Source: Patescibacteria group bacterium (GTDB taxonomy: Bacteria; Patescibacteriota; Minisyncoccia; Phycocordibacterales; CSBR16-119). From it: a stretch of DNA of 64,000 bases. Both the position numbers and the translations under genes were made by a program. Below the pieces are notes generated by a model that ran no database searches, was not told the origin of the DNA, and saw only the letters and a program-made list of their open reading frames with translations. Positions within the stretch are counted from its first letter, which is position 1. The number at the start of each line of letters is the position of its first letter. The stretch is from positions 1,676-65,675 of the forward strand of contig JBPOJJ010000002.1 in assembly GCA_052033715.1 (NCBI GenBank). The letters run 5' to 3'. Below are positions 5,148 through 64,000 of the stretch, piece after piece.

Positions 5148-6596
5148 ATGGAAAAACTCAAAGCCTTCTTATTCAAAAACACTTCGACCAAACAAACCGT
5201 CGCCAAAAATTCTATTTGGCTCCTTGTCGGCGACATCCTCGGAAGGCTTTTGAAACTCGCTATCGTCGTCGTGGCCACTCGCGAACTGGGAGTCGAAGGT
5301 TGGGGAATTTTTTCATACGGCCTGGCTTTCGTCGGGCTCTTCTTTTTATTGGGTGACTTTGGCATCAACACTTTCATTACCAAAGAAATGTCCAGAGACG
5401 AAGAAGGAAAACACAAATACCTGGCCACAGCCATTGTCATTCGTCTGTCTTTCCTACTTATATTTTTCCTGGCGGCAATTTTGGCCGGGCCACATCTGGG
5501 AAAAATCGAGCTCGGCTTCAGTATGATTTTGGTCCTAGCGACTTTTTCCATTTTCGAATCGATCCGCGAATTCGCCATGTCGATCAATCGTTCAAGACAG
5601 AGGATGGAGATTGAAGGCTTCTCAAAAATACTCATCAACCTCTCCATCACAGTAATTGGAATCCTACTGCTCTCACAAAGCGCCGAACCATTTTCTGTTG
5701 CTATGGCCTACATGCTTGGAAGCATTATCGCCACAATCTACATTCTCTGGAGCATCCGTAAAGAATTCAAAGGTCTCAAATGGAAATTCTCCAAAGAAAA
5801 TTTCAAAGTCATCTACAATTTCTCTTGGCCGATTGTCATTATGGGATTTTTTGGAGTTCTCTTTAGTCTCGACACCATAATGCTCGGACAAATGAAGTCC
5901 GCGACCGAGGTCGGCCTCTACACCACCGGTCAGCGAGTCATCACCCTGTCTTCGATGATCCCAGGATTGATCGCCGTATCAATACTCCCAATATTTTCAA
6001 AATACGAAAATGATCCGATCCGTGCTGGTGCAATTTTCGAAAAAATTATGAGGGTACTTTTAGCTTTTGGTATTCCGATCGCCGTCGGCGGGATATTTTT
6101 TAGCTACGATATTATCGCGCTCATGTTCGGTCCGGAATTTTTAGCTGGAACATTAACTTTACAAATATTAATGGTCTCGATTTTGGCTTCTTTCCCGAAC
6201 ATTATCCTGACCAATTTGATATTTTCCAAAAGCCTCCAAAAAACTTTTATCTTCGTAACTATCTTTGGCGTCTTGCTTGATATCGGACTAAATTTCTGGC
6301 TAATCCCGATTTATGGTGCGGCGGGTGCGGCGGCCTCTACAGTACTCGCCGAACTTATCATTATGGGCGCAAACTGGCGCAAGATGAAAAAATTCGTGCC
6401 GTTTAGTGTTGTGTCAAAACTTGGTAGAGTAATTCTTGCGACCATCATCATGACTCTTGGCATTGTGGCACTGAACGCAATCGGTATTCATTTTATCCTT
6501 GTTATAATACTAGCGATGGGAATTTACGCACTCGCACTTCATCTCTTAAAAGAGCCGATTTTCAAAGAAATACTTTCGCTGCGCAAAGCCAAGTAG
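5148..6596 (+). CDS. Wzx-type polysaccharide flippase (MOP/polysaccharide biosynthesis protein family)
   Basis: 482 aa, ~12-14 TM helices; N-terminus typical of PST/Wzx family; 2-nt gap after transferase gene. Confidence 0.75.
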   Translation: MEKLKAFLFKNTSTKQTVAKNSIWLLVGDILGRLLKLAIVVVATRELGVEGWGIFSYGLAFVGLFFLLGDFGINTFITKEMSRDEEGKHKYLATAIVIRLSFLLIFFLAAILAGPHLGKIELGFSMILVLATFSIFESIREFAMSINRSRQRMEIEGFSKILINLSITVIGILLLSQSAEPFSVAMAYMLGSIIATIYILWSIRKEFKGLKWKFSKENFKVIYNFSWPIVIMGFFGVLFSLDTIMLGQMKSATEVGLYTTGQRVITLSSMIPGLIAVSILPIFSKYENDPIRAGAIFEKIMRVLLAFGIPIAVGGIFFSYDIIALMFGPEFLAGTLTLQILMVSILASFPNIILTNLIFSKSLQKTFIFVTIFGVLLDIGLNFWLIPIYGAAGAAASTVLAELIIMGANWRKMKKFVPFSVVSKLGRVILATIIMTLGIVALNAIGIHFILVIILAMGIYALALHLLKEPIFKEILSLRKAK

Positions 6597-6627: not shown

Positions 6628-7494
6628 ATGAAAATAATAACTATATTTGATCGCAACGAGGATTTTATAAAGATGCAATACGAAAGTATCGTCAAACACG
6701 TCAAAGGTAACTACGAATACATCGTTTTTAATAATGCGAAGACCAAAAAGCAAGCTGAGAAAATAAAGGCCTGCTGTGACTCTTTGGGAATAAAATCAAT
6801 AAGAATTAAAGTACCATTTTCTTGGATGAAAACTCCGTCTCAAATAGCCGGAATCGCCCTGAACAAAGCGCATCGACACATTGCCGATATCGAAGGACCT
6901 TTCTTCAAACTCGACAGCGACATGTTTTTCATTGCCGACGTGAACTTGGAGAATCTTTTCGAGATAAACGACCTAGTCTATGTTCCAACTTACGTGCCGA
7001 TAAAAACTGTCTGGAGTGGGCTCTTCGGCATAAACTTGAAAAAAGTAAAATTTGATTTTGATTACAGACCCGGACTTGTGCCAAATACTGATACCTTTGG
7101 CAAAAGTTATTACCTGGTTAAGGACAATATGTATAGCGAAACACTCCTCGGCATGCACAATCTAATAGACATTCAGGATGGGGTCATCGAAACAAATCTA
7201 AATGGCTGCTGCTTGATGAAATTCGACCACAGCGGTTTGATCTTTAGAGAGAACAATAATTTCAAAGACGTCGATGTTGTTGAATTGAGAAAGAGATATG
7301 AAGAAATTATCGAGATTATGGAAAAATATGGTTTTCCAAAACCATATAATCTTGATTTTATGACCCTGAATGGCGAAAATTTCGTGCTTCATTTCAAATC
7401 AAGCAACTGGTGCCCTTGGTATACAGAAAATTACGTTTATTCGAAAAAAGAAGCCATTAAAAGACTCCTGGGAGACACTCCGTCGGCATCCTAA
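6628..7494 (+). CDS. putative GT-A fold glycosyltransferase (hypothetical)
   Basis: 288 aa; DxD-like LDSDMFF; position inside glycan locus. Confidence 0.4.
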   Translation: MKIITIFDRNEDFIKMQYESIVKHVKGNYEYIVFNNAKTKKQAEKIKACCDSLGIKSIRIKVPFSWMKTPSQIAGIALNKAHRHIADIEGPFFKLDSDMFFIADVNLENLFEINDLVYVPTYVPIKTVWSGLFGINLKKVKFDFDYRPGLVPNTDTFGKSYYLVKDNMYSETLLGMHNLIDIQDGVIETNLNGCCLMKFDHSGLIFRENNNFKDVDVVELRKRYEEIIEIMEKYGFPKPYNLDFMTLNGENFVLHFKSSNWCPWYTENYVYSKKEAIKRLLGDTPSAS

Positions 7495-8493: not shown

Positions 8494-9879
8494 ATGAAAT
8501 TTTTAAGTATCTGTATTCCAACATACGAAATGGGCGGTCTGGGGACTAAATTTCTGGCCGAATCTTTTGATATTCTAAATAGACAAACATTTAAAGATTT
8601 TGAGGTTATTATTTCTGATCATTCCAAAGATTCTTTGATTAAAGATCTCTGTAACAAGTACGCCGACAAACTAGATATCAAATATTTTCAAAATCCAGAT
8701 AATCGCGGTAATTCTTCTGCTAATCTCAACAACGCGATTAAGCACGCCGATGGCAAACTCATAAAAATCCTTTTCCAGGACGATTTTCTTTTTGATGAAA
8801 AATCTCTAGAGAAAACTGTCGCTAATTTTGATTTAGAAAAAGATTTCTGGCTTGCAAGCGCCTGTGAACATTCTCGAGATGGAAAAACACTTGAAAGGTC
8901 CTTCTATCCAAAGTACAATCACAAAATTCATCTTGGCAAAAATACTTTAAGCTCTCCTTCGGTAATCACGATCAAAAATGATTCTCCACTCTTTTTTGAC
9001 GAGAACCTGATTTGGCTCATGGACTGCGATTACTATCGACGATGCTATGAAGCTTTTGGCGAGCCGAGGATTTTAAAAGACATAACCGTCGTTAACCGCA
9101 TCGGAAAACACCAGGTAACAAAAGTTTTGGCAACACAAAAAGTAAGGTCCAGGGAATACAAATATATGGTTGGGAAATTTGGCAGAAACCCTGGTCCGGT
9201 TATTTTATCAAACGTATCCCTTATAACAGCGGGTAGTGTCAAAATTTCGGAAGCCATCGAAGCTTTGAAAAAAAGCATGCGCGGAATGAAATTTGCCGAG
9301 GTTTTATTTTTTACGCACGAAGATTTGGATTTGAAGGAAGACGGTATAAGCGTAATAAAAATCCCGCGCCTCGATTACAAGGGCTATAATGAATTCATTG
9401 CCTACAAACTGTCTCGATACATAAAAACAGATTTTGTTCTTGTCGTACAAAATGATGGATATATTCTGCGTCCACAAAAGTGGCAATCAAAATTTTTGGA
9501 TTACGATTACATCGGAGCACCTTGGCCGCCAAATGTTCATTTCACCAACAGAGGCGTAAATGTTCGGGTTGGCAACGGAGGATTTAGCTTGCGCAGCAAA
9601 AAGCTCCTCGATATTTTAAACGAGCTTAATCTTACTTTTACTGACGGCGGCACCGGATACCCCCACGAGGATGGACTTATCTGCAATCATTATCGTCACG
9701 AGCTTGAAGACGCCGGTATAAAATTTGCTCCAGTTCACATCGCAGCTGAATTTAGTCATGAAGTTGATTGTAAAGAATCTGTGTATCAGCCTTTCGGCTT
9801 CCACGGAAGTAAGCTGGTCCTGCCAAGAATCTTCTGGCCAATAAAAAAGATTCTGCGTAAAATGGGCATACGGATATGA
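8494..9879 (+). CDS. family 2 glycosyltransferase fused to a C-terminal DUF5672-like domain
   Basis: 461 aa; N-terminal GT2 signature (CIPTYEMGG...FEVIISDHSKD); C-terminal half with GNGGFSLRS motif. Confidence 0.7.
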   Translation: MKFLSICIPTYEMGGLGTKFLAESFDILNRQTFKDFEVIISDHSKDSLIKDLCNKYADKLDIKYFQNPDNRGNSSANLNNAIKHADGKLIKILFQDDFLFDEKSLEKTVANFDLEKDFWLASACEHSRDGKTLERSFYPKYNHKIHLGKNTLSSPSVITIKNDSPLFFDENLIWLMDCDYYRRCYEAFGEPRILKDITVVNRIGKHQVTKVLATQKVRSREYKYMVGKFGRNPGPVILSNVSLITAGSVKISEAIEALKKSMRGMKFAEVLFFTHEDLDLKEDGISVIKIPRLDYKGYNEFIAYKLSRYIKTDFVLVVQNDGYILRPQKWQSKFLDYDYIGAPWPPNVHFTNRGVNVRVGNGGFSLRSKKLLDILNELNLTFTDGGTGYPHEDGLICNHYRHELEDAGIKFAPVHIAAEFSHEVDCKESVYQPFGFHGSKLVLPRIFWPIKKILRKMGIRI

Positions 9880-23889: not shown

Positions 23890-24142
23890 TATACACTGTC
23901 CTTTAGGCCCCGCAATCTTGACGCCTTTGTCCTTTATCTTCCATCTTCCTACGGAGCAAAATGTCTTTTGGAAAAGGCTCGCCGGAGGATTTTTGTTTAC
24001 AAAAAAAATCCGAGGCGGAAGAAAATTTTTCTCCTCAAAGAAAAATTATTCTGAACTTTTCCAAGAGACATTTTGCGAAGCGCTTTTGCACACCATAAAA
24101 TAAGGCTCAATCGCAATTCCACATGTTACAATATCTCCATAT

Positions 24143-28587: not shown

Positions 28588-28653
28588 TACGATAATTATA
28601 CCAGACCCTCAACCTCTCTACGAAGAAAAATCCCTTGTGTAGATTTTACGAAG

Positions 28654-30033
28654 CTAGAATTCCAATTCCACACTCTGATTTATCTCCGGAGCAATCGCCG
28701 TGATTCCTAAGTTGTCCCGAATCTTTTGCGCCAGAAACATCGCCGAACTCGTCTCGCCCATCACCGTGAAAACTTTTTGCAAAGTATCTTTTCCGGTCTC
28801 AACAAACTTAACTAAGTGAAACGAATCTTTGTGGCCCGAATAACCCTGAATCATCTCGATTTTGGCTTTTACTTTTACACGTTCGTTTAAAATCATAACT
28901 TCGTGCCGGCCTTCTTGGAGAATTCTGCCGAGCGTTCCCGGAACTTGATAACCGGTCAGAAGCAATGTTGCATTTGGATCAGAGAGATAGTTTTTCTCAT
29001 GATGGAGAATTCTTCCGCCCGTGGACATTCCAGACCCTGCCATGATTATTTTCGGTCCAGCAATTTTCAAAATGTTGATTGAGTCTTGAGTCACCTCAGT
29101 CTCGCGAAGGCCTGGAAATTGGAAAATATTATCACCTTGGCTAATCTGCATACGCACGGTTTCTTTGAGTAAATTCAAATGCTTGCGGAATACATCAGTA
29201 ATCCGAATCGCGAGTGGCGAATCTAGGAATATTTTCATCACCGGGATTTGCTTCGATTCAACAAAATTATTCAGTTCGTAGAGAAATTCCTGTGTACGCT
29301 CAAGTGAAAATATCGGCACCATCAGCACGCCCTTTTTCTTGTACGTTTCAAGGATGATTTTCTTGAGATTTTCTTCACGTTCCGCCCGATGCTCGTGGTT
29401 CCTATCGCCATATACGGACTCCATAACCAAATATTTCGCCCCCTCGATGCTTTCTGTATCGTTTAAGAGTGGCGATGGTGAATTACCCAAATCTCCCGTA
29501 AAAACGATCTTTGAGCCGTTATACGTGATTTCCGTCAGACACGAGCCGAGAATATGCCCAGCGTCTTTGAACATGACTTCCATGTCGCCTCCTAGCGTAA
29601 ATTTCTCGTGATATTCGCGCGTTTCCCACATCCCTTTTATCTGAGACAGTATTTGTGGCGAGTATATTTTGTTCAGATGAAATTCCGCCCCACTTCGTGA
29701 ATTAGCCAAAATGTGTGCCGTGTCTTCGAGCATGACCGCCGTCAAATCAGCCGTGGCTGCTGTTCCAATGATTTTACCTTTGAATCCTTCGTAGACAAGC
29801 TTCGGAATTCGGCCAATGTGATCCTCGTGGGCATGACTTATGATGAGTACATCAACTTCTGCCGGATCATAAGGAAACGGATCCCAGTTTTCATGCTCGG
29901 CCATTTTCTCGCCCTGAATCATTCCACAATCAACGAGTAATTTAAATCCGTCAGGACGTTCTAGTAAAAAGTTCGCGCCAGTAACCCAGCCCGTACCTCC
30001 GGCAAAAGTAAGCTTTAATTTTTTAGTTTCCAT
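28654..30033 (-). CDS. MBL-fold metallo-hydrolase of the beta-CASP RNA-metabolising family (RNase J/CPSF-like)
   Basis: 459 aa; HxHxDH (ISHAHEDHIG), beta-CASP and RMMBL-like C-terminus. Confidence 0.7.
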   Translation of the reverse strand: METKKLKLTFAGGTGWVTGANFLLERPDGFKLLVDCGMIQGEKMAEHENWDPFPYDPAEVDVLIISHAHEDHIGRIPKLVYEGFKGKIIGTAATADLTAVMLEDTAHILANSRSGAEFHLNKIYSPQILSQIKGMWETREYHEKFTLGGDMEVMFKDAGHILGSCLTEITYNGSKIVFTGDLGNSPSPLLNDTESIEGAKYLVMESVYGDRNHEHRAEREENLKKIILETYKKKGVLMVPIFSLERTQEFLYELNNFVESKQIPVMKIFLDSPLAIRITDVFRKHLNLLKETVRMQISQGDNIFQFPGLRETEVTQDSINILKIAGPKIIMAGSGMSTGGRILHHEKNYLSDPNATLLLTGYQVPGTLGRILQEGRHEVMILNERVKVKAKIEMIQGYSGHKDSFHLVKFVETGKDTLQKVFTVMGETSSAMFLAQKIRDNLGITAIAPEINQSVELEF

Positions 30034-30460: not shown

Positions 30461-30716
30461 GACTCAATTCTACTAGGCTTTCGACAAAAAGAAAAACCCT
30501 TTTTAAAGGGCCTGAAAGAAAAGTTTCTCTTTACGGCTATCCAAGTTATTATCCTAGCTTAATTAAAAACGTGGGTGCAATGTGACGCGAACCACGGCTC
30601 GAATCAACTTCTCGCTCCCCTAGGACTAATGTTCTAGATAATACTTTGAAATAACCGTGACTTAATTATAAGCCACGGTTATTCTATTCGCAATATGGAC
30701 AAAGTTTTATTTTGTT

Positions 30717-31193: not shown

Positions 31194-31211
31194 ATTTCCT
31201 AGTGAGGAGCA

Positions 31212-31231
31212 TTTGCGAGCTTGCTCGCAAA
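31212..31231. promoter_or_regulatory. perfect palindrome TTTGCGAGC-TT-GCTCGCAAA in ndk 5' region (putative operator)
   Basis: 9-bp perfect inverted repeat 19-38 nt upstream of ndk start. Confidence 0.3.
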
Positions 31232-31332
31232 ATCTCCGAACGACGGAAATATACGAGACGAGCGGAGCGAGGGCTCTTATATTATTCTTAAATTTTAATA
31301 AGCGTAGTTTAGCAGACTTCCGTTCCCCCTTC

Positions 31333-31490
31333 AAGCGGAGCAAAACATGCCAGAAAAAGTTTTCAAACGCACCCGCAGTCCTGACGCCAAAGCGGAAGGA
31401 CGTGAGGGGGCGCACCTCTATTTCGACGGGTGTTACTTAGGAGGAATAGGCGCGCTTTTTGAAAACTTTTTCTGGCATGTTTTGCGGAGC
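31333..31490. repeat. structured intergenic element, copy A: conserved core flanked by ~26-bp closing inverted repeat
   Basis: AAGCGGAGC + stem AAAACATGCCAGAAAAAGTTTTCAAA ... core GAAGGACGTGAGGGGGCGCACCTCTATTTC..GTGTTACTTAGGAGGAATAGGCGCGC ... stem TTTGAAAACTTTTCTGGCATGTTTT + GCGGAGC; abuts stop codon of upstream ATPase gene. Confidence 0.6.
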
Positions 31491-34225
31491 TATATTTTCA
31501 TGAACTTATCCATCACTTCCTTCTCCACTTCATCTCTCGGCCTGCCGAATTTAAGGAATGACAATTCTTTGAGCGAGTCAACGATTTCCGGATTACCTGG
31601 TGGCAAGTCTTGAGTTCGAATGTTAAATGGTTTGACTGGTACACCATCAACAAGCATCGAAATGTAGGCGTTTCGATTATCGAGCTTCAATATGTCTTGG
31701 ACCGTAAACGTCGGTTCGAGACGTTTGACCAAAACCTCGGCATCTTCGGAGCTGATGCGAAAAATTCCCATTGAACCGACGTTTCCGAGAACCGCGTTTC
31801 TAATGTCATCAGAGAGCTGTGACAAGTATTGATGTGCAACATTAAGTGAGAGTTTGTATTTGCGAGCTTCGGAGAGGATTGATGAAATTGAGGGTGTGGT
31901 GAAGTTCTGGAACTCGTCAATATAGAGATAAAACGGTGGCAAACTTCCGGCTCCGTCAGCACGCGACAGTGCGGCCATCTGGATTTTGCCGACAAGTATG
32001 AGACCGAGTAGGTTCGCATTGATATCACCGAGCCTTCCCTTTGACAGGTTCACCAAGAGAATTTTCTTATTATCAATAATCTCGCGGAAATTGAAACTCG
32101 ATTTCTCCTGCGCAATAATCGGACGCATGATTTCGTTTGAGATAAACGTGTCGAATTTGGACGTGATGTATGGCACAAAGTTCTCAAGACCCTGCTCACC
32201 CGTCGTCGCCTCAGCCGTTTTCCAAAACTGGGTGATGATTGGGTTCGTACAATGAGACAATTTCATATCGCGGAATTTCTTGTCCGAAAGCACGCGACCA
32301 ATTTCAAGCACGGTGTTTCCTGATTCTGGATGGGCCATAACCAATCCAGCGGAATTTTTAAAATATTGTTCGAATAGCGGTCCGCCGGCCGTCTTCATGT
32401 CAAAGAGCTGATTAAAAATGCCTAGCAGTTCGTTAATAACGAGAGTTTTCTGTTCTGGACGCTCTGGGTCAAACTCAAGCATATTGAGCGCCATCGGCCG
32501 AGAGGTCGAAGCTGGATCAAAGTAGATAACGTCATCAATTCGATGTTTTGGAATATAAGAGAGAATTTTCTGAATATCAGTTCCGTGCGGATCGATATAA
32601 CAAACCCCATCACCTCGCTCAATATCCTGACGAATCATATTCATGAGAATTCCCGTCTTACCCGTTCCTGTTTGACCGATAACGTAAAAATGTCGCATAC
32701 GATCAATTTCTTTCAAGAACACGTCGGTATCTACACCACGATAAGAGTTGATACCAATCTGAATACCGTCAGTCCCCATATTGATAGGCACTGCCCCTAC
32801 ACCGGCTTTGGACTCACGAAGTTCTGGTGAGCCAGTCGTACCAACTGGGAAATGCACAAGCGTAGAAAGCTCTTTGAAATTTAGCGGCATAGCGTCGCGC
32901 TCGTTTGGCATACGGAAAGAAAATGCATGAAAAAATTGCGTCGTGTCTTTTTCTTGGACCTTGTGAAATCGAACACTGTTAGAGTTCGCCTTGGTAAATT
33001 GGGAAAAAGACGACTCAATGTTCGATATTATCTCGGCGGTACGGCCAGCGGATGGCGATGACGCAATGATGCGAATGTTTGCCAAGACGATGGTTGATTT
33101 GATTTTTTCAGAAATATTTTCGACGGCTCGATCATCGACGTCTTTGCCCTCATCGGACTTTTCCCTCTCCGCGACTTTCTGACTTTTGAAAAGTGATGTA
33201 CCGAAATTCTTGAACTCTTGTTTTATATCGTGAAAATCATCAAGCGCGTGTTTCAATTTTTCTCCATGTTTTACTTTGTCCAAGATTTTGGAGAATTTTT
33301 TGATATACGTGTCGCCAGCCGGCATAATGACGAACTGTAAAGCGGCTCCTTCGGTTGTCTTGTCGAGCTTGGAAAAGGCGTTCAAAATCGCCCCCATTGG
33401 ATCGTGGTCAAATTCGTCGTGAGTCTTGAGCGGAAAGACATCATGATCAGAAAGTGTGGCATAAGCACCCGAGGTTACGCCCTTGTCGATAAAAATATTG
33501 TAGTCGTTGGTGACTTCGGTCACACGAGCGTTTTTATAAAAAGAAAGAATTTGTTTTTCTAGCAAGCTCTTGCGATCCTTTGGAATTGAAACGTAGAGGA
33601 TTATTTCCGGTGAATCATGTGAGACAGAAATTTCAATAGTGAAATATTGCTTGAAACGATTTTGCTCACCTGACGCAATCGTCTGCATGCCGGCCAAAAA
33701 CTGCTCCATGGCCGTGAGGAAATCTTTAAAACTTTTACTCTCACCTTCGAGTGGCGGAAGCGTCACTTCGAAAAGAGCGAGGTTCAATGACTTCCATTCC
33801 GGCGTAGTTTCTTTGAGACCCGGAATATTGCCAGAGGTGTGCAAGAACTGAACAAGAAATCGGTGAAAATCATCCTCGACGTGAGGATTTTTCAAGCGCG
33901 ACACAATTTCCATGGTGTTTTTGATTCCGTGTTCGAGCAACATTCCATACAACTCCTCGATCTGGCTATCGTGCTCTTCGGGCTTGAGCGCGAGAGCTAC
34001 CGCTTCGGTTTGGGTATCTTCCATGCGGAAATTATCGTGCAAGACTTCGGCCGAGTCAGCTTTCTTGTACGCAGACAATGTCTCATGTGTCGCCTCTTCG
34101 CGAGACTTCTCGATATTTTGGCTAGCCAGAGATTGCTCATGCTTGGCGACTTGTTCTCTCAAATACGAAAGCTCCTCTTCGGGAGTTTTAAACTTCGGAG
34201 CTTCTCTCGAACCACCAAATTCCAT
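31490..34225 (-). CDS. VirB4/TraC-like (T4SS-type) P-loop ATPase, 911 aa, with ~500-aa uncharacterised N-terminal region
   Basis: Walker A HFYVIGQTGTGKTG followed by ...GVCYIDPHGT; Walker B YLYIDEFQNF; layout (long N-domain then ATPase) resembles VirB4/CagE/TrbE; no other T4SS genes nearby. Confidence 0.55.
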   Translation of the reverse strand: MEFGGSREAPKFKTPEEELSYLREQVAKHEQSLASQNIEKSREEATHETLSAYKKADSAEVLHDNFRMEDTQTEAVALALKPEEHDSQIEELYGMLLEHGIKNTMEIVSRLKNPHVEDDFHRFLVQFLHTSGNIPGLKETTPEWKSLNLALFEVTLPPLEGESKSFKDFLTAMEQFLAGMQTIASGEQNRFKQYFTIEISVSHDSPEIILYVSIPKDRKSLLEKQILSFYKNARVTEVTNDYNIFIDKGVTSGAYATLSDHDVFPLKTHDEFDHDPMGAILNAFSKLDKTTEGAALQFVIMPAGDTYIKKFSKILDKVKHGEKLKHALDDFHDIKQEFKNFGTSLFKSQKVAEREKSDEGKDVDDRAVENISEKIKSTIVLANIRIIASSPSAGRTAEIISNIESSFSQFTKANSNSVRFHKVQEKDTTQFFHAFSFRMPNERDAMPLNFKELSTLVHFPVGTTGSPELRESKAGVGAVPINMGTDGIQIGINSYRGVDTDVFLKEIDRMRHFYVIGQTGTGKTGILMNMIRQDIERGDGVCYIDPHGTDIQKILSYIPKHRIDDVIYFDPASTSRPMALNMLEFDPERPEQKTLVINELLGIFNQLFDMKTAGGPLFEQYFKNSAGLVMAHPESGNTVLEIGRVLSDKKFRDMKLSHCTNPIITQFWKTAEATTGEQGLENFVPYITSKFDTFISNEIMRPIIAQEKSSFNFREIIDNKKILLVNLSKGRLGDINANLLGLILVGKIQMAALSRADGAGSLPPFYLYIDEFQNFTTPSISSILSEARKYKLSLNVAHQYLSQLSDDIRNAVLGNVGSMGIFRISSEDAEVLVKRLEPTFTVQDILKLDNRNAYISMLVDGVPVKPFNIRTQDLPPGNPEIVDSLKELSFLKFGRPRDEVEKEVMDKFMKI

Positions 34226-34314: not shown

Positions 34315-35487
34315 TCAGTCCATTCGATGGGCTGGATCTTCAACATCTTCTGGAATGAGGAGTTCGGGCCTCAAAGCCTCCGGGATGGTGGGCTTCCAAG
34401 ACAGCCTGCTACCTGCCATGAGCGGTGTGATGCCACCATAAGATGGTGGAATTTCCCAACCTTCTTCGCCCGCGTATTCAAGCTCGAACGTGTCATCGTT
34501 CGGCTCCATTCCGTAGATACGTGCACCGTTCGTGACAGTGAAAGCTTCGAATGCTGGATGGTCAAGCCTCATCATCTGGTCGAAAATATAGACCATCAAT
34601 GGCCCCATCACTGGCGAACTGAAAACGCCAGGGCATCCGCAACTGCAGAGCTTTGTCGGATCGAGGTGTGGCGCCGAATCGGGTCCAAGATGGAGCTTGT
34701 TGTATCCTAGTTCATCGGCACGAAGCACCGCTGTAAGCAATGCTTGTTGATCAACGAATGTCTGCACCGGTGGACGACAGTGATGAAATGGGTTGATGCC
34801 AGGATTTCCACCAGCGACCGGCCACTCCAAGACATCGTTACGTGTCATCCAAAGATGCTGCGGGGTAATGCCGCCTGTAATGCACTCCGGCATCTTCAAG
34901 ACCATTTCTAGTGTGCTCGCGGTAGAAATGTGCTCGATGTTGAAACGCACGCCCGGGAATTTCTCAACAAGTCCCAAGAATGCCTCTTCCATGAACACGC
35001 CTTCGCGTGCGTATGTATCGATCTTCTCGCCCGGCTGTTCGCCGTGCAAACAGATGATGAGCTCGCGAGATGCTGCTTTTTCGATCGCAGAGTACATTTC
35101 TTGGAATGAATTCCAAGCACTTCCCTTTTCGTTCGAATTGGTCACACCCTCGGGATAGATCTTGACCGAGCGACCACCGAGGCTTTGAAACGCGGCAAGC
35201 TCTAGTAGATGAGTGTCTTTCACCAGCTTCATCGCAACACTATGCCTCATCTGTGGTGCCCTTCTGTGAAGTTCGCGCCGGTAATTCTGGGAATCAGTCG
35301 CACTGAGAATTGGCGGAGCCGTATTCGGCATCCACACCTCGTGTTGCGCCCACCAAGCAGTGGTCGTTACGGCGGTATGGAAGCGTGGTACAGGCTTTTC
35401 GTTGCCAATCACGTTGCGAGCGTGCCCGTGGGTCTGGAAGAACTTACGGAATTTTCGGCGTTCGCCGATTTGCGGTCGTGTGTTCAT
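34315..35487 (-). CDS. pyrC: dihydroorotase (E. coli PyrC-type, class II)
   Basis: ~390 aa from internal ATG (MNTRPQ...). PyrC motifs WMPNTAPP, ITPQHLWMTRNDV, GPDSAPH, SCGCPGVF, FTVTNGARIYG. ATGA overlap with pyrD stop. GC-rich (~55%). Confidence 0.85.
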   Translation of the reverse strand: MNTRPQIGERRKFRKFFQTHGHARNVIGNEKPVPRFHTAVTTTAWWAQHEVWMPNTAPPILSATDSQNYRRELHRRAPQMRHSVAMKLVKDTHLLELAAFQSLGGRSVKIYPEGVTNSNEKGSAWNSFQEMYSAIEKAASRELIICLHGEQPGEKIDTYAREGVFMEEAFLGLVEKFPGVRFNIEHISTASTLEMVLKMPECITGGITPQHLWMTRNDVLEWPVAGGNPGINPFHHCRPPVQTFVDQQALLTAVLRADELGYNKLHLGPDSAPHLDPTKLCSCGCPGVFSSPVMGPLMVYIFDQMMRLDHPAFEAFTVTNGARIYGMEPNDDTFELEYAGEEGWEIPPSYGGITPLMAGSRLSWKPTIPEALRPELLIPEDVEDPAHRMD

Positions 35488-36446
35488 GCGAAGTTTGGGT
35501 GTTGGTTGATGGTTTTGATGAGTTCTTTCATGCGCCATGGACGCGTGATAGCAGCGGTACCGAGTGAAATGCCTTTGACGCATTTCAATTCAGCAAGCTG
35601 TTCAATATCCTGGACGGATGTAACTCCGCCCCCGGCAATGATCGGCTTTTTGAAGCCGCTATACTCAGCATGTTGAAGCCACTGCAGTGTCGTTCCGAAG
35701 ATTGGTTGTCCTGACAGCCCGCCGCCGCCATACTTTTTGAGAGGCGAGCCGTTTGGGAAATAGGTATGTACACCAGCTTCGGAAATGGCGCCGAATGGAA
35801 GAGTGTTGAAGCAAACAAGTCCAGCGCAAGCCGGATGTTCTTCGATCGCCTTGGCATCTTCAACGGACGTAAGCTGGTTGATCTTGACCAAGATCGGAAC
35901 ATCCAGGCTCGCAAGAACATCCAGAAGCGGCTTCGCAGCTTTTGCGGTCTTCGCTGTATCATGACCAGTATTAGGACAAGACACGTTCAGCTGTACCGCG
36001 AATTTCGTCATAAACCTGGTCTTGTTGACCAGATCTACGAATCCTCGCGCCTGAAATTCCTGCGCAATGGGATCGTCGCCGATCGCCATGAACGAGAGCA
36101 TGAACGGATCACGTCTACGCTGCCAGTGACCTTGTGCAATTAGGTGCGCAACTCCAGGTCCGCTAAGTCCAACCGAGTTCAGAACAAGGTTGTTAACGAA
36201 ATCGACGTGGACCGAATCCGGAAACATCTTCTTCAGGCCGATTTGATTCTCGGTCAATTCAGTATTCCCCTTGTTAGGATTGAATGTCGTCGTCTTGGCA
36301 CAGAACGTCATACCATCGAATGTAAATCCAGGCATGAGTTTGTAGAACGGATGATGGCGGTACTCGGTACCAGCATCACCCCCGAAGAAGCCTTGAACGC
36401 CAGAGGCGCCCACGGCAGGACTGAAGTGGATTCCTCCGATATTCAT
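35484..36446 (-). CDS. pyrD: dihydroorotate dehydrogenase family protein (class 1 DHOD/DHPD-like TIM barrel)
   Basis: 320 aa; NSVGLSGPG, LNVSCPNTGH, GGGGLSGQPI, IIAGGGVTSVQD motifs matching class-1 DHOD; GC-rich. Confidence 0.7.
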   Translation of the reverse strand: MNIGGIHFSPAVGASGVQGFFGGDAGTEYRHHPFYKLMPGFTFDGMTFCAKTTTFNPNKGNTELTENQIGLKKMFPDSVHVDFVNNLVLNSVGLSGPGVAHLIAQGHWQRRRDPFMLSFMAIGDDPIAQEFQARGFVDLVNKTRFMTKFAVQLNVSCPNTGHDTAKTAKAAKPLLDVLASLDVPILVKINQLTSVEDAKAIEEHPACAGLVCFNTLPFGAISEAGVHTYFPNGSPLKKYGGGGLSGQPIFGTTLQWLQHAEYSGFKKPIIAGGGVTSVQDIEQLAELKCVKGISLGTAAITRPWRMKELIKTINQHPNFA

Positions 36447-36550: not shown

Positions 36551-37315
36551 CTATTTTGTGAGCACAATTGGCCCTTTTTCGGTGATGGCGACGGTGTGCT
36601 CGAAGTGTGCCGAGAGTTTGCCGTCTTTAGTTATGAACGTGTATTCGTCTTCGGTGACGTAGACATCGCCGGTACCGAGATTGATCATCGGCTCGATAGC
36701 GATAACCATGCCCGGAACAAGTCGCTCGCCCGTGTTGGCTCGGCCGAAGTTTGGAATATATGGATCTTCGTGGACACTGTAACCAACACCGTGACCCGAG
36801 AGGATTTTAACAATTCCGTAACCCATTGGCTTGATATAACTTTCAACCGCGTGACCAATGTCACCGACACGATTCCCGGGCTTCGCGGCCGCGACCGCGA
36901 GCTCAAGAGCTTTCTTTGTAACCTTGATCAATTCTTTGGCTTCTTTGGAAATCTTCCCGACCGGTACAGTAATAGCGCCGTCAGTGATGAGACCCTTGTG
37001 CACGAGACCGAGATCAAGCGACACGATGTCGCCGTCTTTTAGAAAAACCTTTTTGTTCGGGATGCCGTGAACGATTTCATCATTGATCGAGACGCATAGA
37101 GTCGCTGGATATGGATATGAAATTCCTTCGGGTGTGTAGTTTAGAAATGCTGGTTTATCTCCGCCCTCTTTTACAAGTTTGAATGCCAGATCATCCAGGG
37201 CTTTGGTCGAGACTCCCGACTTCGCTTCGGCTGCGACCAATTTCAAAATCTCGGCGTGGCGCTTGCCGCCTTCTCGCATGATTTTTATTTCTTCTTTTGA
37301 TTTGAGTTTGATCAT
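36551..37315 (-). CDS. map: type I methionine aminopeptidase
   Basis: 254 aa; full-length MetAP-I similarity incl. metal ligands (D..D..H..E..E pattern). Confidence 0.9.
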   Translation of the reverse strand: MIKLKSKEEIKIMREGGKRHAEILKLVAAEAKSGVSTKALDDLAFKLVKEGGDKPAFLNYTPEGISYPYPATLCVSINDEIVHGIPNKKVFLKDGDIVSLDLGLVHKGLITDGAITVPVGKISKEAKELIKVTKKALELAVAAAKPGNRVGDIGHAVESYIKPMGYGIVKILSGHGVGYSVHEDPYIPNFGRANTGERLVPGMVIAIEPMINLGTGDVYVTEDEYTFITKDGKLSAHFEHTVAITEKGPIVLTK

Positions 37316-37902
37316 GAGACAGATTCAACTTTTGAAATGAGATCCGCGTATACTTCTTCGATACTGCGCTCGCCATCTATTTCGAAGAAGTTGTAATCTT
37401 TGTTGTCATAGAAATACGAAATAGCTGGAACAACATTCCATTCAAACCACGACAAACGGCTTTTGATGTATTCGTCAGAATCATCTCCACGTCCACGAGC
37501 CTTGAGTCGAGCAAAACACCATTCGTCGCTCGTTTTGATATAGATGACCGTTGGCTTCTCTATTTTGTAGAACTTCATTGCGGAATCAAGCACGGGCGCT
37601 TCATCCGGACGTCGGCAGAGACCGTCGAGAATGAGGTCGCGCTTGCCATCAAACTTGTTCACCAAATCCATCGTCCAGAGCCAGATCGGCAGAAACACTG
37701 GCATAAGGCCACCTTTAGAAAGCACTTCTTTGGTCATCTGGGCAGAATAGTTGGATTGGTCGATAAAATTACGGAATTTCTGTCCGGTTTCAATGTAAAT
37801 TGGCTCAATACCCTTTTTGTCTTCTAGGTACTTTTTCAGCATGTCAGCCTGGGTTCCCTTGCCTGAGCCAGAACGACCGAAGAATATAAATGTTTGTTGC
37901 AT
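37312..37902 (-). CDS. adk: adenylate kinase-family nucleoside monophosphate kinase
   Basis: 196 aa; P-loop GRSGSGKGTQ; adk-map gene order as at end of spc operon; 4-nt overlap with map. Confidence 0.7.
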   Translation of the reverse strand: MQQTFIFFGRSGSGKGTQADMLKKYLEDKKGIEPIYIETGQKFRNFIDQSNYSAQMTKEVLSKGGLMPVFLPIWLWTMDLVNKFDGKRDLILDGLCRRPDEAPVLDSAMKFYKIEKPTVIYIKTSDEWCFARLKARGRGDDSDEYIKSRLSWFEWNVVPAISYFYDNKDYNFFEIDGERSIEEVYADLISKVESVS

Positions 37903-37958
37903 AGGGAAAGTATACCAGAATTAAGAAGTAAGTATTAGGAAGTAAGAAAGACGCCTGT

Positions 37959-38110
37959 AAGCGGAGTAAAAACAAAAAATTTCGTATCTGCGAACCAACC
38001 CGGAGCCCGAAGAGGCGTGAGGGGGCGGGCCTCTAATTTCTCCGCGTGCCACTTAGGAGAAATTGGCCCGCATCTCGCAAAGACACGAAATTTTTTGTTT
38101 TTATGGAGCG
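37959..38110. repeat. structured intergenic element, copy B (same conserved core as copy A, different but still complementary closing stems)
   Basis: AAGCGGAG + stem TAAAAACAAAAAATTTCGT ... core GAAGAGGCGTGAGGGGGCGGGCCTCTAATTTCTCCGCGTGCCACTTAGGAGAAATTGGCCCGC ... stem ACGAAATTTTTTGTTTTTAT + GGAGCG; ends 5 nt from rpsR stop codon. Confidence 0.6.
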
Positions 38111-38115
38111 CCTTG

Positions 38116-38313
38116 TTACTCGGCTACGAATGGTAGAAGTCCCATGATGCGAGCGCGTTTGACGGCGGTCGACAGGTGTTTCTGGTTCTTGGTTGAGAGC
38201 TTGGTCTTTTTCTTTGGCATCAAGCGGGCGCTTGAATCAAGAAATTGCTTCAAGATCGCAGTGTCTTTGTAGTCGATATACTTTATGTTGTTTGAAGAAA
38301 AATAATCTTGCAT
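38116..38313 (-). CDS. rpsR: 30S ribosomal protein S18
   Basis: 65 aa; S18 signature ...KKTKLSTKNQKHLSTAVKRARIMGLLPF. Confidence 0.85.
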   Translation of the reverse strand: MQDYFSSNNIKYIDYKDTAILKQFLDSSARLMPKKKTKLSTKNQKHLSTAVKRARIMGLLPFVAE

Positions 38314-38339: not shown

Positions 38340-38801
38340 TTAGAACGGGATGTCGTCTGGATTTATATCGTCTTCTGGATACTCTATCGTCTCAAGTTCA
38401 GGAGCCTTCATTTCTGGTGCGTCTCCTCCGTTGTTGCTTGCTGCTGCCTGACCGCCGCCATAGTTTCCTCCTCCGGATGATCTAGGGCCAAACTGAATCG
38501 TGTCAGCAATAATTTCTGTTCGATACTTCTTGCCACCATCGGCATCCCACGAACGAGTCTGCATTCGGCCTTCAACCATGATTGAAGATCCTTTTTTCAT
38601 GTACTGCTGAACGATCTCGGCTTGGCGTCCGAAGACGACAATGTTGTGGAATTCTGTTGATTCTTTCTTCGCGCCATCCTTGTCTTTCCATGTACGGTTC
38701 GTGGCAACGCTAAAGTTGCAAACCTTAATACCTGACGGTAGAGCTTTCATCTCCGGATCTCGAGTTAAATTCCCGATGATCATAGCTTTGTTTAGATACA
38801 T
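38340..38801 (-). CDS. ssb: single-stranded DNA-binding protein
   Basis: 153 aa; OB-fold N-terminus (MIIGNLTRDPE), Gly-rich linker, acidic C-terminal DDIPF tail. Confidence 0.9.
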   Translation of the reverse strand: MYLNKAMIIGNLTRDPEMKALPSGIKVCNFSVATNRTWKDKDGAKKESTEFHNIVVFGRQAEIVQQYMKKGSSIMVEGRMQTRSWDADGGKKYRTEIIADTIQFGPRSSGGGNYGGGQAAASNNGGDAPEMKAPELETIEYPEDDINPDDIPF

Positions 38802-38845: not shown

Positions 38846-39337
38846 CTATTTAACTTCTGGCAATGTCTCACCCGCGGTGTCAATTTCGATCATCTCGTCT
38901 ATTTTCTTATCGACTTCGGCTGTGTCCATAGGCGCTCCCTCGACGACATCAGACGGTGTTCGGCGAGCCATGCCCTTGTGAGCAAGCTTTGGCACAGCCA
39001 AAGTGCTTTCGCGAACAGTTTTGACAATAATGAATCGCAAGACGTTCGGGTTTTTATCCATGAGCTCTTTGAAGCCTTCGATGAGAGATGCTTCTATTTC
39101 AAATTTGATCCAACCAAAATATGCTGTGCCGAATTTTCGATTCTTGTTTTCAATGTCCTTACCAAGTTCATAGGCCAGAGTCGTCATGGCTGGATGAGCT
39201 TCGGCAATGATTTCGGCGTCTATCTTTGACAATTCTCCCTTAAGCGCAGTCACGACTTTGGAAACTTCGTCTTCAGACAAAGTTGGCAAAATGTGATATC
39301 CAAGCTCGTAGATTTGTTTTTTTGATGTTTCTTCCAT
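38846..39337 (-). CDS. rpsF: 30S ribosomal protein S6 (with C-terminal extension)
   Basis: 164 aa from ATG at 39337 (MEETSKKQIYELGYHIL...); S6-like core; rpsF-ssb-rpsR synteny. Confidence 0.7.
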   Translation of the reverse strand: MEETSKKQIYELGYHILPTLSEDEVSKVVTALKGELSKIDAEIIAEAHPAMTTLAYELGKDIENKNRKFGTAYFGWIKFEIEASLIEGFKELMDKNPNVLRFIIVKTVRESTLAVPKLAHKGMARRTPSDVVEGAPMDTAEVDKKIDEMIEIDTAGETLPEVK

Positions 39338-39523
39338 GTTTTTTCGATTATTTATAATTTGTAAATCATTTTTACCCCACTTCGCCAAGGCTTCGCGGGG
39401 CTTTTGCCCGGATTTGGGCAAAAGAAAAACGCATCGTTATCGGACCAAGCGACGCCCCATGTTTTCAGAGGAGTCGAACGAAACGCTTGGGCAATAATAG
39501 CACAGGGCCCTAAAAAGTAAAGC

Positions 39524-57881: not shown

Positions 57882-57949
57882 CCCCCACACCTATATTTTG
57901 ATAGTTCTTCGAACGCGCCTTTGGCGCCATCAAAATATAGGTGTGGGGG
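57882..57949. repeat. 21-bp perfect inverted repeat (CCCCCACACCTATATTTTGAT ... ATCAAAATATAGGTGTGGGGG) flanking 26-nt spacer
   Basis: long-stem element between DoxX start and PNP terminator; contains TATATT/-10-like boxes, so could be operator/promoter or hairpin element. Confidence 0.5.
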
Positions 57950-63895: not shown

Positions 63896-64000
63896 GTGGC
63901 ATAAAAAAGACATTACGGAGGAAGCCGGCCCATCAAGGCCGGCTTCCGAGTATAGCGGCCAACTGTTTACAAGTTGGAACGCGCGTCTTTTTTATGCCAC
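63896..64000. repeat. 16-bp perfect inverted repeat (GTGGCATAAAAAAGAC ... GTCTTTTTTATGCCAC) enclosing ~73 nt with internal hairpin GGAAGCCGGCC..GGCCGGCTTCC
   Basis: long-stem element ending exactly at window edge. Confidence 0.45.

Follow-up and report, generated by a model that had tools for sequence, protein, structure and literature searches.

A probable genus-restricted family of interspersed palindromic repeats, with one copy in the rpsR-adk spacer of an ultra-small Patescibacteria genome

The DNA analysed here (hereafter the window) is a 64,000-nucleotide stretch from a Patescibacteria group bacterium, contig JBPOJJ010000002.1, positions 1,676 to 65,675, in which rpsF, ssb and rpsR are followed by adk and map. 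An earlier note on this DNA had placed a structured inverted-repeat element between rpsR and adk, had counted it as the second member of a family first seen at 31333-31490 (copy A), and had proposed a regulatory or terminator role for it. The gene context was borne out, with the element, here called element B, lying between rpsR and adk and every gene on the minus strand (Table 1). We found that the arms of its inverted repeat are 23 nt long, 96% complementary and separated by 91 nt, and that the gene-strand RNA from 37955 to 38115 has a minimum free energy (MFE) of -68.2 kcal/mol, compared with -42.4 +/- 4.0 for shuffled sequences (z = -6.5; 0 of 200 shuffles as good). The arms and the fold z-score confirm the structured element and its stem where they had been placed. 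Because the element is a palindrome, the opposite strand folds nearly as stably (z = -5.2). As described below, element B probably belongs to a family of non-coding interspersed palindromic repeats that is confined to one genus.

The predicted structure of element B is a 23-bp A/U-rich stem (P1) that closes a GC-rich three-way junction. P1 has a short extension in addition to its 23 bp, and its sole mismatch is a G.U pair on the gene strand. The P3 hairpin corresponds to the sequence ACTTAGGAGA that had previously been read on the opposite strand, where a Shine-Dalgarno-like AGGAG had been noticed in the loop. That observation does not apply to the mRNA, as the AGGAG is on the non-coding strand; the gene strand reads UCUCCUAAGU, and helix P3 pairs the CUCC of this sequence with GGAG. 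On the plus strand of element B a TTG following the AGGAG opens an open reading frame (ORF) antisense to rpsR, and copy A contains nothing comparable. Element B is base for base the same in an independent assembly, L001 (Logan SRR34217545), and it is therefore not an assembly artefact.

By its adk homologues the window belongs to the Patescibacteria/Paceibacterota. For comparison with relatives we used the ~20-kb syntenic region from ~12 genomes with an adk identity of 80-97%, plus ~70 more distant Paceibacterota loci (loci are designated by L numbers). The rpsR-adk spacer varies across the 12 relatives, with either a plain terminator or one of five or six distinct hairpin elements. The window carries a core of type I, subtype B, and L011, with an adk identity of 97%, carries type I, subtype A, with 28-bp arms that are wholly different yet perfectly paired. 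L005 (type II) and L101 (type II') have a short core, (Y)UGYGRGA...GGUYCUC, between conserved inner arms; L012 has a type III core in which a mini-terminator is nested, L098 has a type IV core, and L096 has a different hairpin. Only a canonical A-tract/GC-stem/U-tract terminator was found in L094, L007, L002, L091 and L014. The earlier note had linked a regulatory role to conservation in related genomes. As the same spacer holds I-A, I-B, II, II', III, IV or no element, the element is not conserved in these genomes, and a dedicated conserved function at rpsR-adk is therefore refuted.

Three orthologous sites were compared (rpsR-adk, after the TraG-like gene and after the RNase J-like gene), and they are filled or empty depending on the relative. 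At the TraG-ndk site the window has a type I element and L011 a 79-nt type II element between orthologous flanks, with the TraG-like proteins 91% identical. The same core also occurs at non-orthologous sites, as the core of copy D in the window resembles that of L012 at rpsR, and the core of copy C resembles that of L098 at rpsR. A fragment at the rnj site of L007 combines arms like those of copy A with a P4 like that of L011 at rpsR. Each of L011, L005, L012, L014, L101, L098, L002 and L007 contains 1-3 members per ~20-kb locus; L007 has one decayed copy and one 3' half, and nested copies were seen as well among the relatives. These comparisons suggest that family members are gained, lost and swapped faster than ~10% protein divergence.

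On the gene strand the family has the frame (UA)GCUCCGC-AAAA...arm...core...arm'...UUUU-GCUCCGC(UU/GG)(R)AGG. The self-complementarity of GC lets the two direct copies of GCUCCGC pair GC with GC on either side of UCC opposite UCC, so that a helix, a 3x3 pyrimidine loop and a second helix lie at the base of the hairpin. Members are 80-160 nt long, have no conserved ORF, and have A/T-rich arms of 21-28 nt that are 83-100% complementary. The two arms of an element are 93% complementary on average, whereas 5' arms are 53% identical between elements. There are at least four core types, built as hairpins nested in hairpins; that of element B, type I, is the GC-rich three-way junction and has ~60% GC within an A/T-rich frame. 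The unpaired blocks of the type I core are 100% kept between copies A and B, whereas its helices vary, with three predicted pairs changed on both sides. Pairing-preserving double changes were also found in internal hairpins (copy A versus B; copy D versus L012).

The single G.U of element B had hinted at a pairing signal in the gene-strand RNA. This possibility was rejected, as the transition mismatches over 14 elements are split into 4 G.U and 6 A.C, and there is therefore no evidence of pairing selected specifically in the sense RNA. The constraint on the hairpins looks structural and strand-symmetric, because the arm sequences vary freely and the sole conserved motif is unpaired at the hairpin base. 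We also considered GCTCCGC as a DNA-uptake sequence and discarded this idea, since the window contains 6 occurrences compared with 5.35 expected.

The 64-kb window contains at least four family members (A, B, C and D) plus one remnant. Copy A is joined to the TAG stop codon of a TraG/DUF8128-like gene (31490-34225), upstream of ndk. It aligns with element B at 78% column identity, with CUCCUAAGU and AGAGGnnCGCCCCCUCACG as common blocks, and exact occurrences of the 12-mer CGCCCCCTCACG in the window are limited to these two copies, in agreement with the previous assignment of both to one family. P3 is disrupted in copy A, and its U-run is only UUUU. Copy C lies between the divergently transcribed ftsK and DeoR-HTH genes, and the core of copy D is ~85-90% identical to the core of L012 (L012:9641-9769).

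Table 1. Features of the rpsR-adk region, parts of element B and other family copies in the window
Feature	Position	Strand	Description
rpsF	38846-39421	minus	
ssb	38340-38801	minus	
rpsR	38116-38313	minus	
rpsR stop codon	38116-38118	minus	TAA; element B begins 2 nt downstream
Element B, whole	37959-38113	minus	155 nt; P0, internal loop, P1 and three-way-junction core; from MFE fold and inverted repeat
P0, 5' strand	38109-38113	minus	AGGCG; 5 bp with CGCUU 37959-37963; predicted fold
Basal internal loop	38104-38108, 37964-37966	minus	CUCCA opposite CUC; corresponds to family motif GC-UCC-GC, both hairpin sides
P1, 5' arm	38081-38103	minus	UAAAAACAAAAAAUUUCGUGUCU; A-rich; inverted repeat and fold
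P1, 3' arm	37967-37989	minus	AGAUACGAAAUUUUUUGUUUUUA; contains U6GU5 run, 37968-37979
P2	38065-38071, 38025-38031	minus	GCGGGCC with GGCCCGC; fold; one pair changed on both sides relative to copy A
P3 hairpin	38035-38064	minus	AAUUUCUCC 38056-38064, loop UAAGUGGCACGC 38044-38055, GGAGAAAUU 38035-38043
Junction motif, unpaired block	38016-38027	minus	CGCCCCCUCACG; same in copies A and B; L011 has GCCCCCUCACG, 11/12 bases
P4 hairpin	37999-38023	minus	Fold; differs between copies
adk extended -10 box	37909-37917	minus	TGGTATACT; 6 nt before adk ATG (37900-37902); downstream of element B
adk	37312-37902	minus	
map	36551-37315	minus	
Copy A	31333-31490	minus	Type I core; perfect 28-bp P1; arms 90 nt apart
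Copy C	23951-24081	minus	Family termini GCTTCGCAAAATG...CATTTTGCTCCGT; 21-bp arms; type IV core
Copy D	63896-64000	minus	Clipped by window end; perfect 16-bp arms; type III core
Deletion remnant	28613-28656	minus	At stop of RNase J-like gene (28654-30033); TAGCTTCGT-AAAATC-loop-GATTTT-TCTTCGTAGAGAGG

The position of the elements relative to stop codons is a further feature of the family. We found that 12 of 13 members lie 0-15 nt downstream of a stop codon whose gene has the same orientation. Copy C is the exception, and its location between divergent genes argues for DNA-level insertion and against an obligatory function in a 3' untranslated region (UTR). At eight element-bearing sites the stop codon is TAG, fused to the element as TA-GCUCCGC, whereas TAA is used at 10 of the 12 element-free orthologous sites; the element end apparently supplies or selects the third base of the stop codon. 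Stop-codon read-through was rejected as an explanation, as the in-frame extensions after TAG, judged by reading the sequences, are short and lack conservation from copy to copy.

L094 and L007, which are the closest relatives when large proteins are compared, carry at rpsR the terminator AAAAACAAAAAAT-CCCC(loop)GGGG-ATTTTTTGTT, the tracts of which match the outer 13 bp of P1. P1 of element B starts with the identical AAAAACAAAAAAT and ends with ATTTTTTGTTTTT. Element B looks like an L094/L007-type terminator in which the GC clamp was swapped for a stem and core. The arms of element B also resemble the decayed copy of L007, and the change between terminator and element could thus have occurred in either direction. 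Of the role proposed in the earlier note, the part concerning a terminator that separates the S6 operon from adk-map is plausible, because relatives hold plain terminators in the same slot and the 3' arm of element B has U6GU5; the part concerning a conserved regulator did not stand. Element B was not called by a simple consensus terminator scan. It has the position of an intrinsic terminator and the U6GU5 run, but its 'loop' measures 91 nt and the stem beside the run is rich in A/U. We consider that element B probably doubles as the S6-operon terminator or as a 3' stabiliser.

The sequence immediately upstream of adk bears on whether the element could control this gene. A TATAAT-like box is present 6-8 nt before the adk ATG in 12 of 12 relatives, whether or not an element is present. 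This box would be expected to act as the adk promoter, and the adk mRNA looks leaderless in all relatives. The suggestion that the element controls adk could not be sustained, because in all 12 relatives the conserved -10 box of adk itself sits between the rpsR-adk spacer element, where there is one, and the ATG. Similarly, a riboswitch or 5' leader of adk or ndk was ruled out by the downstream -10 box and by the absence or replacement of the element in most relatives. We also observed that the adk identity of L007 and L094 is 81-82%, compared with 88-93% for the TraG-like gene and 94% for the RNase J-like gene in L007 (the L094 locus does not cover the latter). These discordant identities suggest recombination or allelic replacement at adk (37312-37902) within the genus.

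We next consider the distribution of the family. When 1.55 Mb from 94 sources was searched with a covariance model of the type I core, the only matches were the two window copies, L011 and, weakly (E = 1.8), a fragment in L007. Genomes that contain the frame pattern all have an adk identity of >=80%, and loci with an adk identity of <=65% lack it; no family members were found in the ~70 distant Paceibacterota loci. By this distribution the family appears to be restricted to one genus of ultra-small Patescibacteria. No Rfam covariance model gave a gathering-level match anywhere in the window, matches at E <= 10 on three sub-regions were noise, and ARAGORN found nothing in the window. A likeness of GUGAGGGGGCGG (plus strand) to twister ribozymes was set aside, as it was backed by no Rfam match. 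The element had no blastn match in phage and plasmid collections. Viral scans gave no match to the core pattern, and three scans with the frame pattern gave three chance matches without hairpins; a metagenome scan with a 3'-half pattern gave two chance matches in coding DNA only. The pattern CCTAAGT..GAGGNNNGCCCCCTCAC, used in one of the two genome-contig scans, gave no match and was too strict, missing the L011 copy too, so that absence from other GTDB genomes is not established. Exact-match look-up of the window ndk and rpsR proteins returned no record, and a search of the literature on Patescibacteria MITEs (transposable elements of the miniature inverted-repeat type) or terminators found nothing relevant.

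Other hairpin families occur in the same loci. The density of long large-loop hairpins is 1.4 per 10 kb among the close loci, compared with 0.9 among the far ones, and includes some false positives in coding DNA; intergenic long hairpins with large loops are common across the phylum and belong to other families. A second repeat family in these loci, whose long hairpin surrounds GUCCGUACUGUUUGAGGAGUGCCUAAGCACUCCGAGUUUACGGAC and has a UUGGUUACUUUUGCUUCAAGGCAAAAGUAA tail after it, often adjoins members of the element B family (L007:9720-9900, L012:9800-9960, L014:14800-14990 and 18060+, L101:5900-6090 and 9400-9600, L097:1-40). Another hairpin, TGAATCCCGATAGTGAT..(~90 nt)..ATCACTATCGGGATGAA, is widespread in distant Paceibacterota at differing genomic positions (L005:11732-11855, L007:16638-16765, L011:6353-6479, L026:9845-9999, L035:11579-11706, L066:9852-9993, L069 and L084), and may be another interspersed element or a conserved RNA.

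Comparison with known repeats identified the pneumococcal SPRITE as the closest analogue. SPRITEs are A/T-rich, end in AAAA/TTTT and have an unusually long duplex with a U-rich tract behind it; they have no demonstrable target duplication, are enriched at the 3' ends of coding sequences (CDS), occur in one species and its sister, and cluster and nest with other repeats (PMC3049150). The element B family is alike in its size (<200 bp), A/T-richness, AAAA...TTTT ends, long duplex with U tract, location at CDS 3' ends, narrow range, clustering and nesting, and in having no established target-site duplication. It differs in having the GCUCCGC basal loop, modular GC-rich cores up to a three-way junction, frequent stop-codon fusion and a very small Patescibacteria host. 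The two are likened by description, and homology is not expected across phyla. BOX and RUP (PMC3049150), QMITE2 in 3' UTRs and nested or clustered MITEs (PMC10969869), and CREE (PMC2649163) are further analogues in the literature. The rpsR-adk spacer had previously been regarded as an unusual place for selfish DNA; to the contrary, REP, SPRITE, QMITE2 and Correia-type repeats typically reside at gene 3' ends and in intra-operon spacers (PMC3049150, PMC10969869, PMC2649163).

The CREE/NEMIS repeats of Neisseria (PMC2649163) and the ERIC/IRU-type MITEs (PMC2229807) are also similar to the element B family, with 100-160 bp, long inverted repeats around a core, co-transcription as a long hairpin and presence or absence between strains. 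Effects of CREE and ERIC/IRU on termination, RNase III mRNA processing and promoters have been reported (PMC2649163, PMC2229807). CREE differs in its sequence-conserved terminal inverted repeats (TIRs), TA target duplication and IHF site, whereas the arms of our family are 53% identical and no TA duplication was seen. More generally, the Correia, ERIC and RUP MITEs share size, hairpin RNA and strain polymorphism with it, and differ by conserved TIRs and target duplications. REP/BIME sequences, which PMC10969869 also mentions, are extragenic palindromes at gene 3' ends that are mobilised by RAYT (Y1 HUH) transposases and stabilise upstream mRNA; a REP is ~35 nt, has a GTAG motif and hundreds of copies, and has a cognate RAYT gene. 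These repeats resemble the element B family in their location at gene 3' ends, in the short conserved motif at the hairpin foot and in keeping structure more than sequence, but for the element B family, with members of 80-160 nt and the motif GCTCCGC rather than GTAG, no RAYT partner was found. Bidirectional intrinsic terminators have an A-tract, a U-tract and a loop of 3-8 nt. Element B is like them in its post-stop position, A-rich 5' arm and U-rich 3' arm, and unlike an intrinsic terminator it has a 90-nt three-way junction in place of the loop and an A/U-rich stem beside the U-run. The family is undescribed and no named family fits; in kind it is a bacterial interspersed palindromic repeat with a terminator-like form. 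Three features go beyond the textbook MITE/REP picture: the GCUCCGC motif in the basal loop, fusion to the stop codon, and interiors that are swapped like cassettes.

From these comparisons we conclude that element B is probably one copy of a MITE/SPRITE/REP-like non-coding interspersed palindromic repeat family that is restricted to one genus within the Paceibacterota lineage. An interspersed mobile or recombining family is indicated by the multiple copies, the turnover at fixed sites, the shared modules elsewhere and the nested, truncated and decayed copies. As in MITEs, the members are small (<300 bp), non-coding, A/T-rich, bounded by inverted repeats, multicopy, and present or absent between relatives; as in SPRITEs, they have a long duplex with a U-rich tract, GCAAAA...UUUUGC termini and a location near CDS 3' ends. 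Element B would form the 3' end of the transcript of rpsF-ssb-rpsR, where its long stem and U6GU5 run (37968-37979) would terminate transcription and/or protect the mRNA 3' end. In contrast, adk-map would be transcribed separately from its own downstream promoter as a leaderless mRNA. We favour spread at the DNA level, through hairpins or short homology, over spread by a sequence-specific TIR transposase, because the arms are kept in structure and not in sequence, the basal motif is unpaired and there is no bias of G.U over A.C. Candidate processes would be gene conversion between copies via the A/T tracts and flanks that they share, switching of the template inside palindromes, or the action of an enzyme that recognises the structure.

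Several observations weigh against this conclusion. Scanning 30 window ORFs (64 kb of genome) against Pfam identified no transposase, recombinase or other mobilising gene, and none with a Y1 transposase domain. None of the relatives showed an empty site that carried just one GCTCCGC, nor is a target-site duplication, which the MITE definition includes, supported; flanking GCTCCGC repeats are alike at every site where they occur, and filled and element-free sites differ by replacement and not by simple insertion. A classical TIR-plus-target-duplication mechanism is therefore unsupported. In addition, every copy but one has the orientation of the upstream gene and adjoins the stop codon of that gene, which could equally reflect a selected RNA function. 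Terminator activity is a prediction; the stem beside the U-run of element B is A/U-rich, and copy A has only UUUU. Lastly, the sampling is biased to one ~20-kb syntenic region.

The same evidence bears on several other explanations. The elements could be DNA-level substrates, single-stranded DNA (ssDNA) hairpins or att-like GCTCCGC-bounded cassettes moved at gene ends by a structure-specific recombinase or HUH-type enzyme, with any RNA effect incidental. Retention of arm structure without arm sequence, the unpaired motif at the hairpin base, the 4 G.U to 6 A.C split, the interior swapped between constant flanks at the TraG-ndk site (window versus L011) and the TA-GCTCCGC fusion at filled sites would all fit. 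We nonetheless consider this explanation unlikely, as no candidate enzyme and no single-GCTCCGC empty site were found, the flank motif is wholly missing in L002 (rnj site) and L098 (rpsR), and the mismatch sample is small (10 transitions). A more far-reaching version, that these are a new kind of gene-end mobile unit in streamlined Patescibacteria, is quite unlikely. Such a unit would be a modular hairpin cassette bounded by GCUCC-GC that replaces the host terminator, supplies the stop codon (TA-GCTCCGC) and is moved between sites by an ssDNA-hairpin/HUH-like or short-homology mechanism, with the type I junction as a possible protein-binding or catalytic RNA cargo.

Alternatively, the type I core (P2-P3, CGCCCCCUCACG and P4) could itself be a functional RNA domain, protein-binding, ligand-sensing or a small ribozyme, with the frame as its carrier only. 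Its fully conserved unpaired blocks, varying helices, three predicted pairs changed on both sides and high GC content within the A/T-rich frame are consistent with this idea. It is very unlikely, however, since there are three full copies in about two lineages, where conservation may simply reflect a common origin in the recent past; copy A has a disrupted P3, unrelated cores replace the type I core at the same site, and there is no match beyond the closest relatives or in Rfam. A dedicated conserved cis-acting RNA, whether an attenuator, regulated terminator, leader or riboswitch for adk (or for ndk in the case of copy A), seemed attractive because copies A and B both precede nucleotide-kinase genes, the fold is far more stable than shuffles and the junction nucleotides are conserved. 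This explanation is highly improbable given that five relatives have a plain terminator and others unrelated cores, that adk, with its apparently leaderless mRNA, has its -10 box after the element and before the ATG, and that the family also occurs after the RNase J-like gene and between divergent genes. Moreover, the association with adk and ndk stems from sampling a single syntenic region, and there is no Rfam match. An interspersed repeat family thus remains the explanation that we prefer.

Inspection of the window revealed further features in the vicinity of these genes and elsewhere. Between map and the TraG-like gene (34315-36446, minus strand) there is a DHODH-like gene together with a 422-aa ORF without a Pfam match; the pair is present in L096 and missing in most relatives (L002, L091), a gene-content indel of ~2 kb. 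Just 5' of the ndk ATG (31195-31275, minus strand) a palindromic leader, CGUAUAUUUCCGUCGUUCGGAG-hairpin-GCUCCUCACUAGGAAAUAUG, pairs the ndk Shine-Dalgarno sequence AGGAAA with UAUUUCC, and a related copy (L097:120-226) lies directly upstream of adk. This palindrome could be a translational control hairpin or could belong to another repeat family. The region between ndk and a DUF2238 gene (30490-30693, minus strand) contains a conserved non-coding stretch of ~165 nt with a sigma-70-like promoter (TTGCGA-17-TATAAT) and an intrinsic terminator, also found in L098 (~6300-6480) and L101 (~7080-7260); with no Rfam match, it is a candidate unannotated small RNA gene. At 57882-57949 (minus strand) a perfect 21-23 bp hairpin, CCCCCACACCUAU...AUAGGUGUGGGGG, follows a canonical terminator and precedes a TGnTAnAAT-like box; at L101:7268-7402 there is a relative whose interior is 93 nt long.

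These findings correct a tempting misreading, in that a structured element within a conserved ribosomal-protein neighbourhood is a lineage-specific repeat and not a conserved riboregulator. They also indicate that very small Patescibacteria genomes, probably of ~1 Mb, carry several fast-evolving palindromic repeat families in short spacers, often at stop codons. The wider weight of the family depends on whether its mobilisation mechanism or the type I core proves special. Such repeats are a practical hazard for the discovery of non-coding RNAs and a possible strain-typing marker in metagenomes. If they act as terminators, they illustrate how an essential signal can be captured by hairpins that are selfish or partly so.

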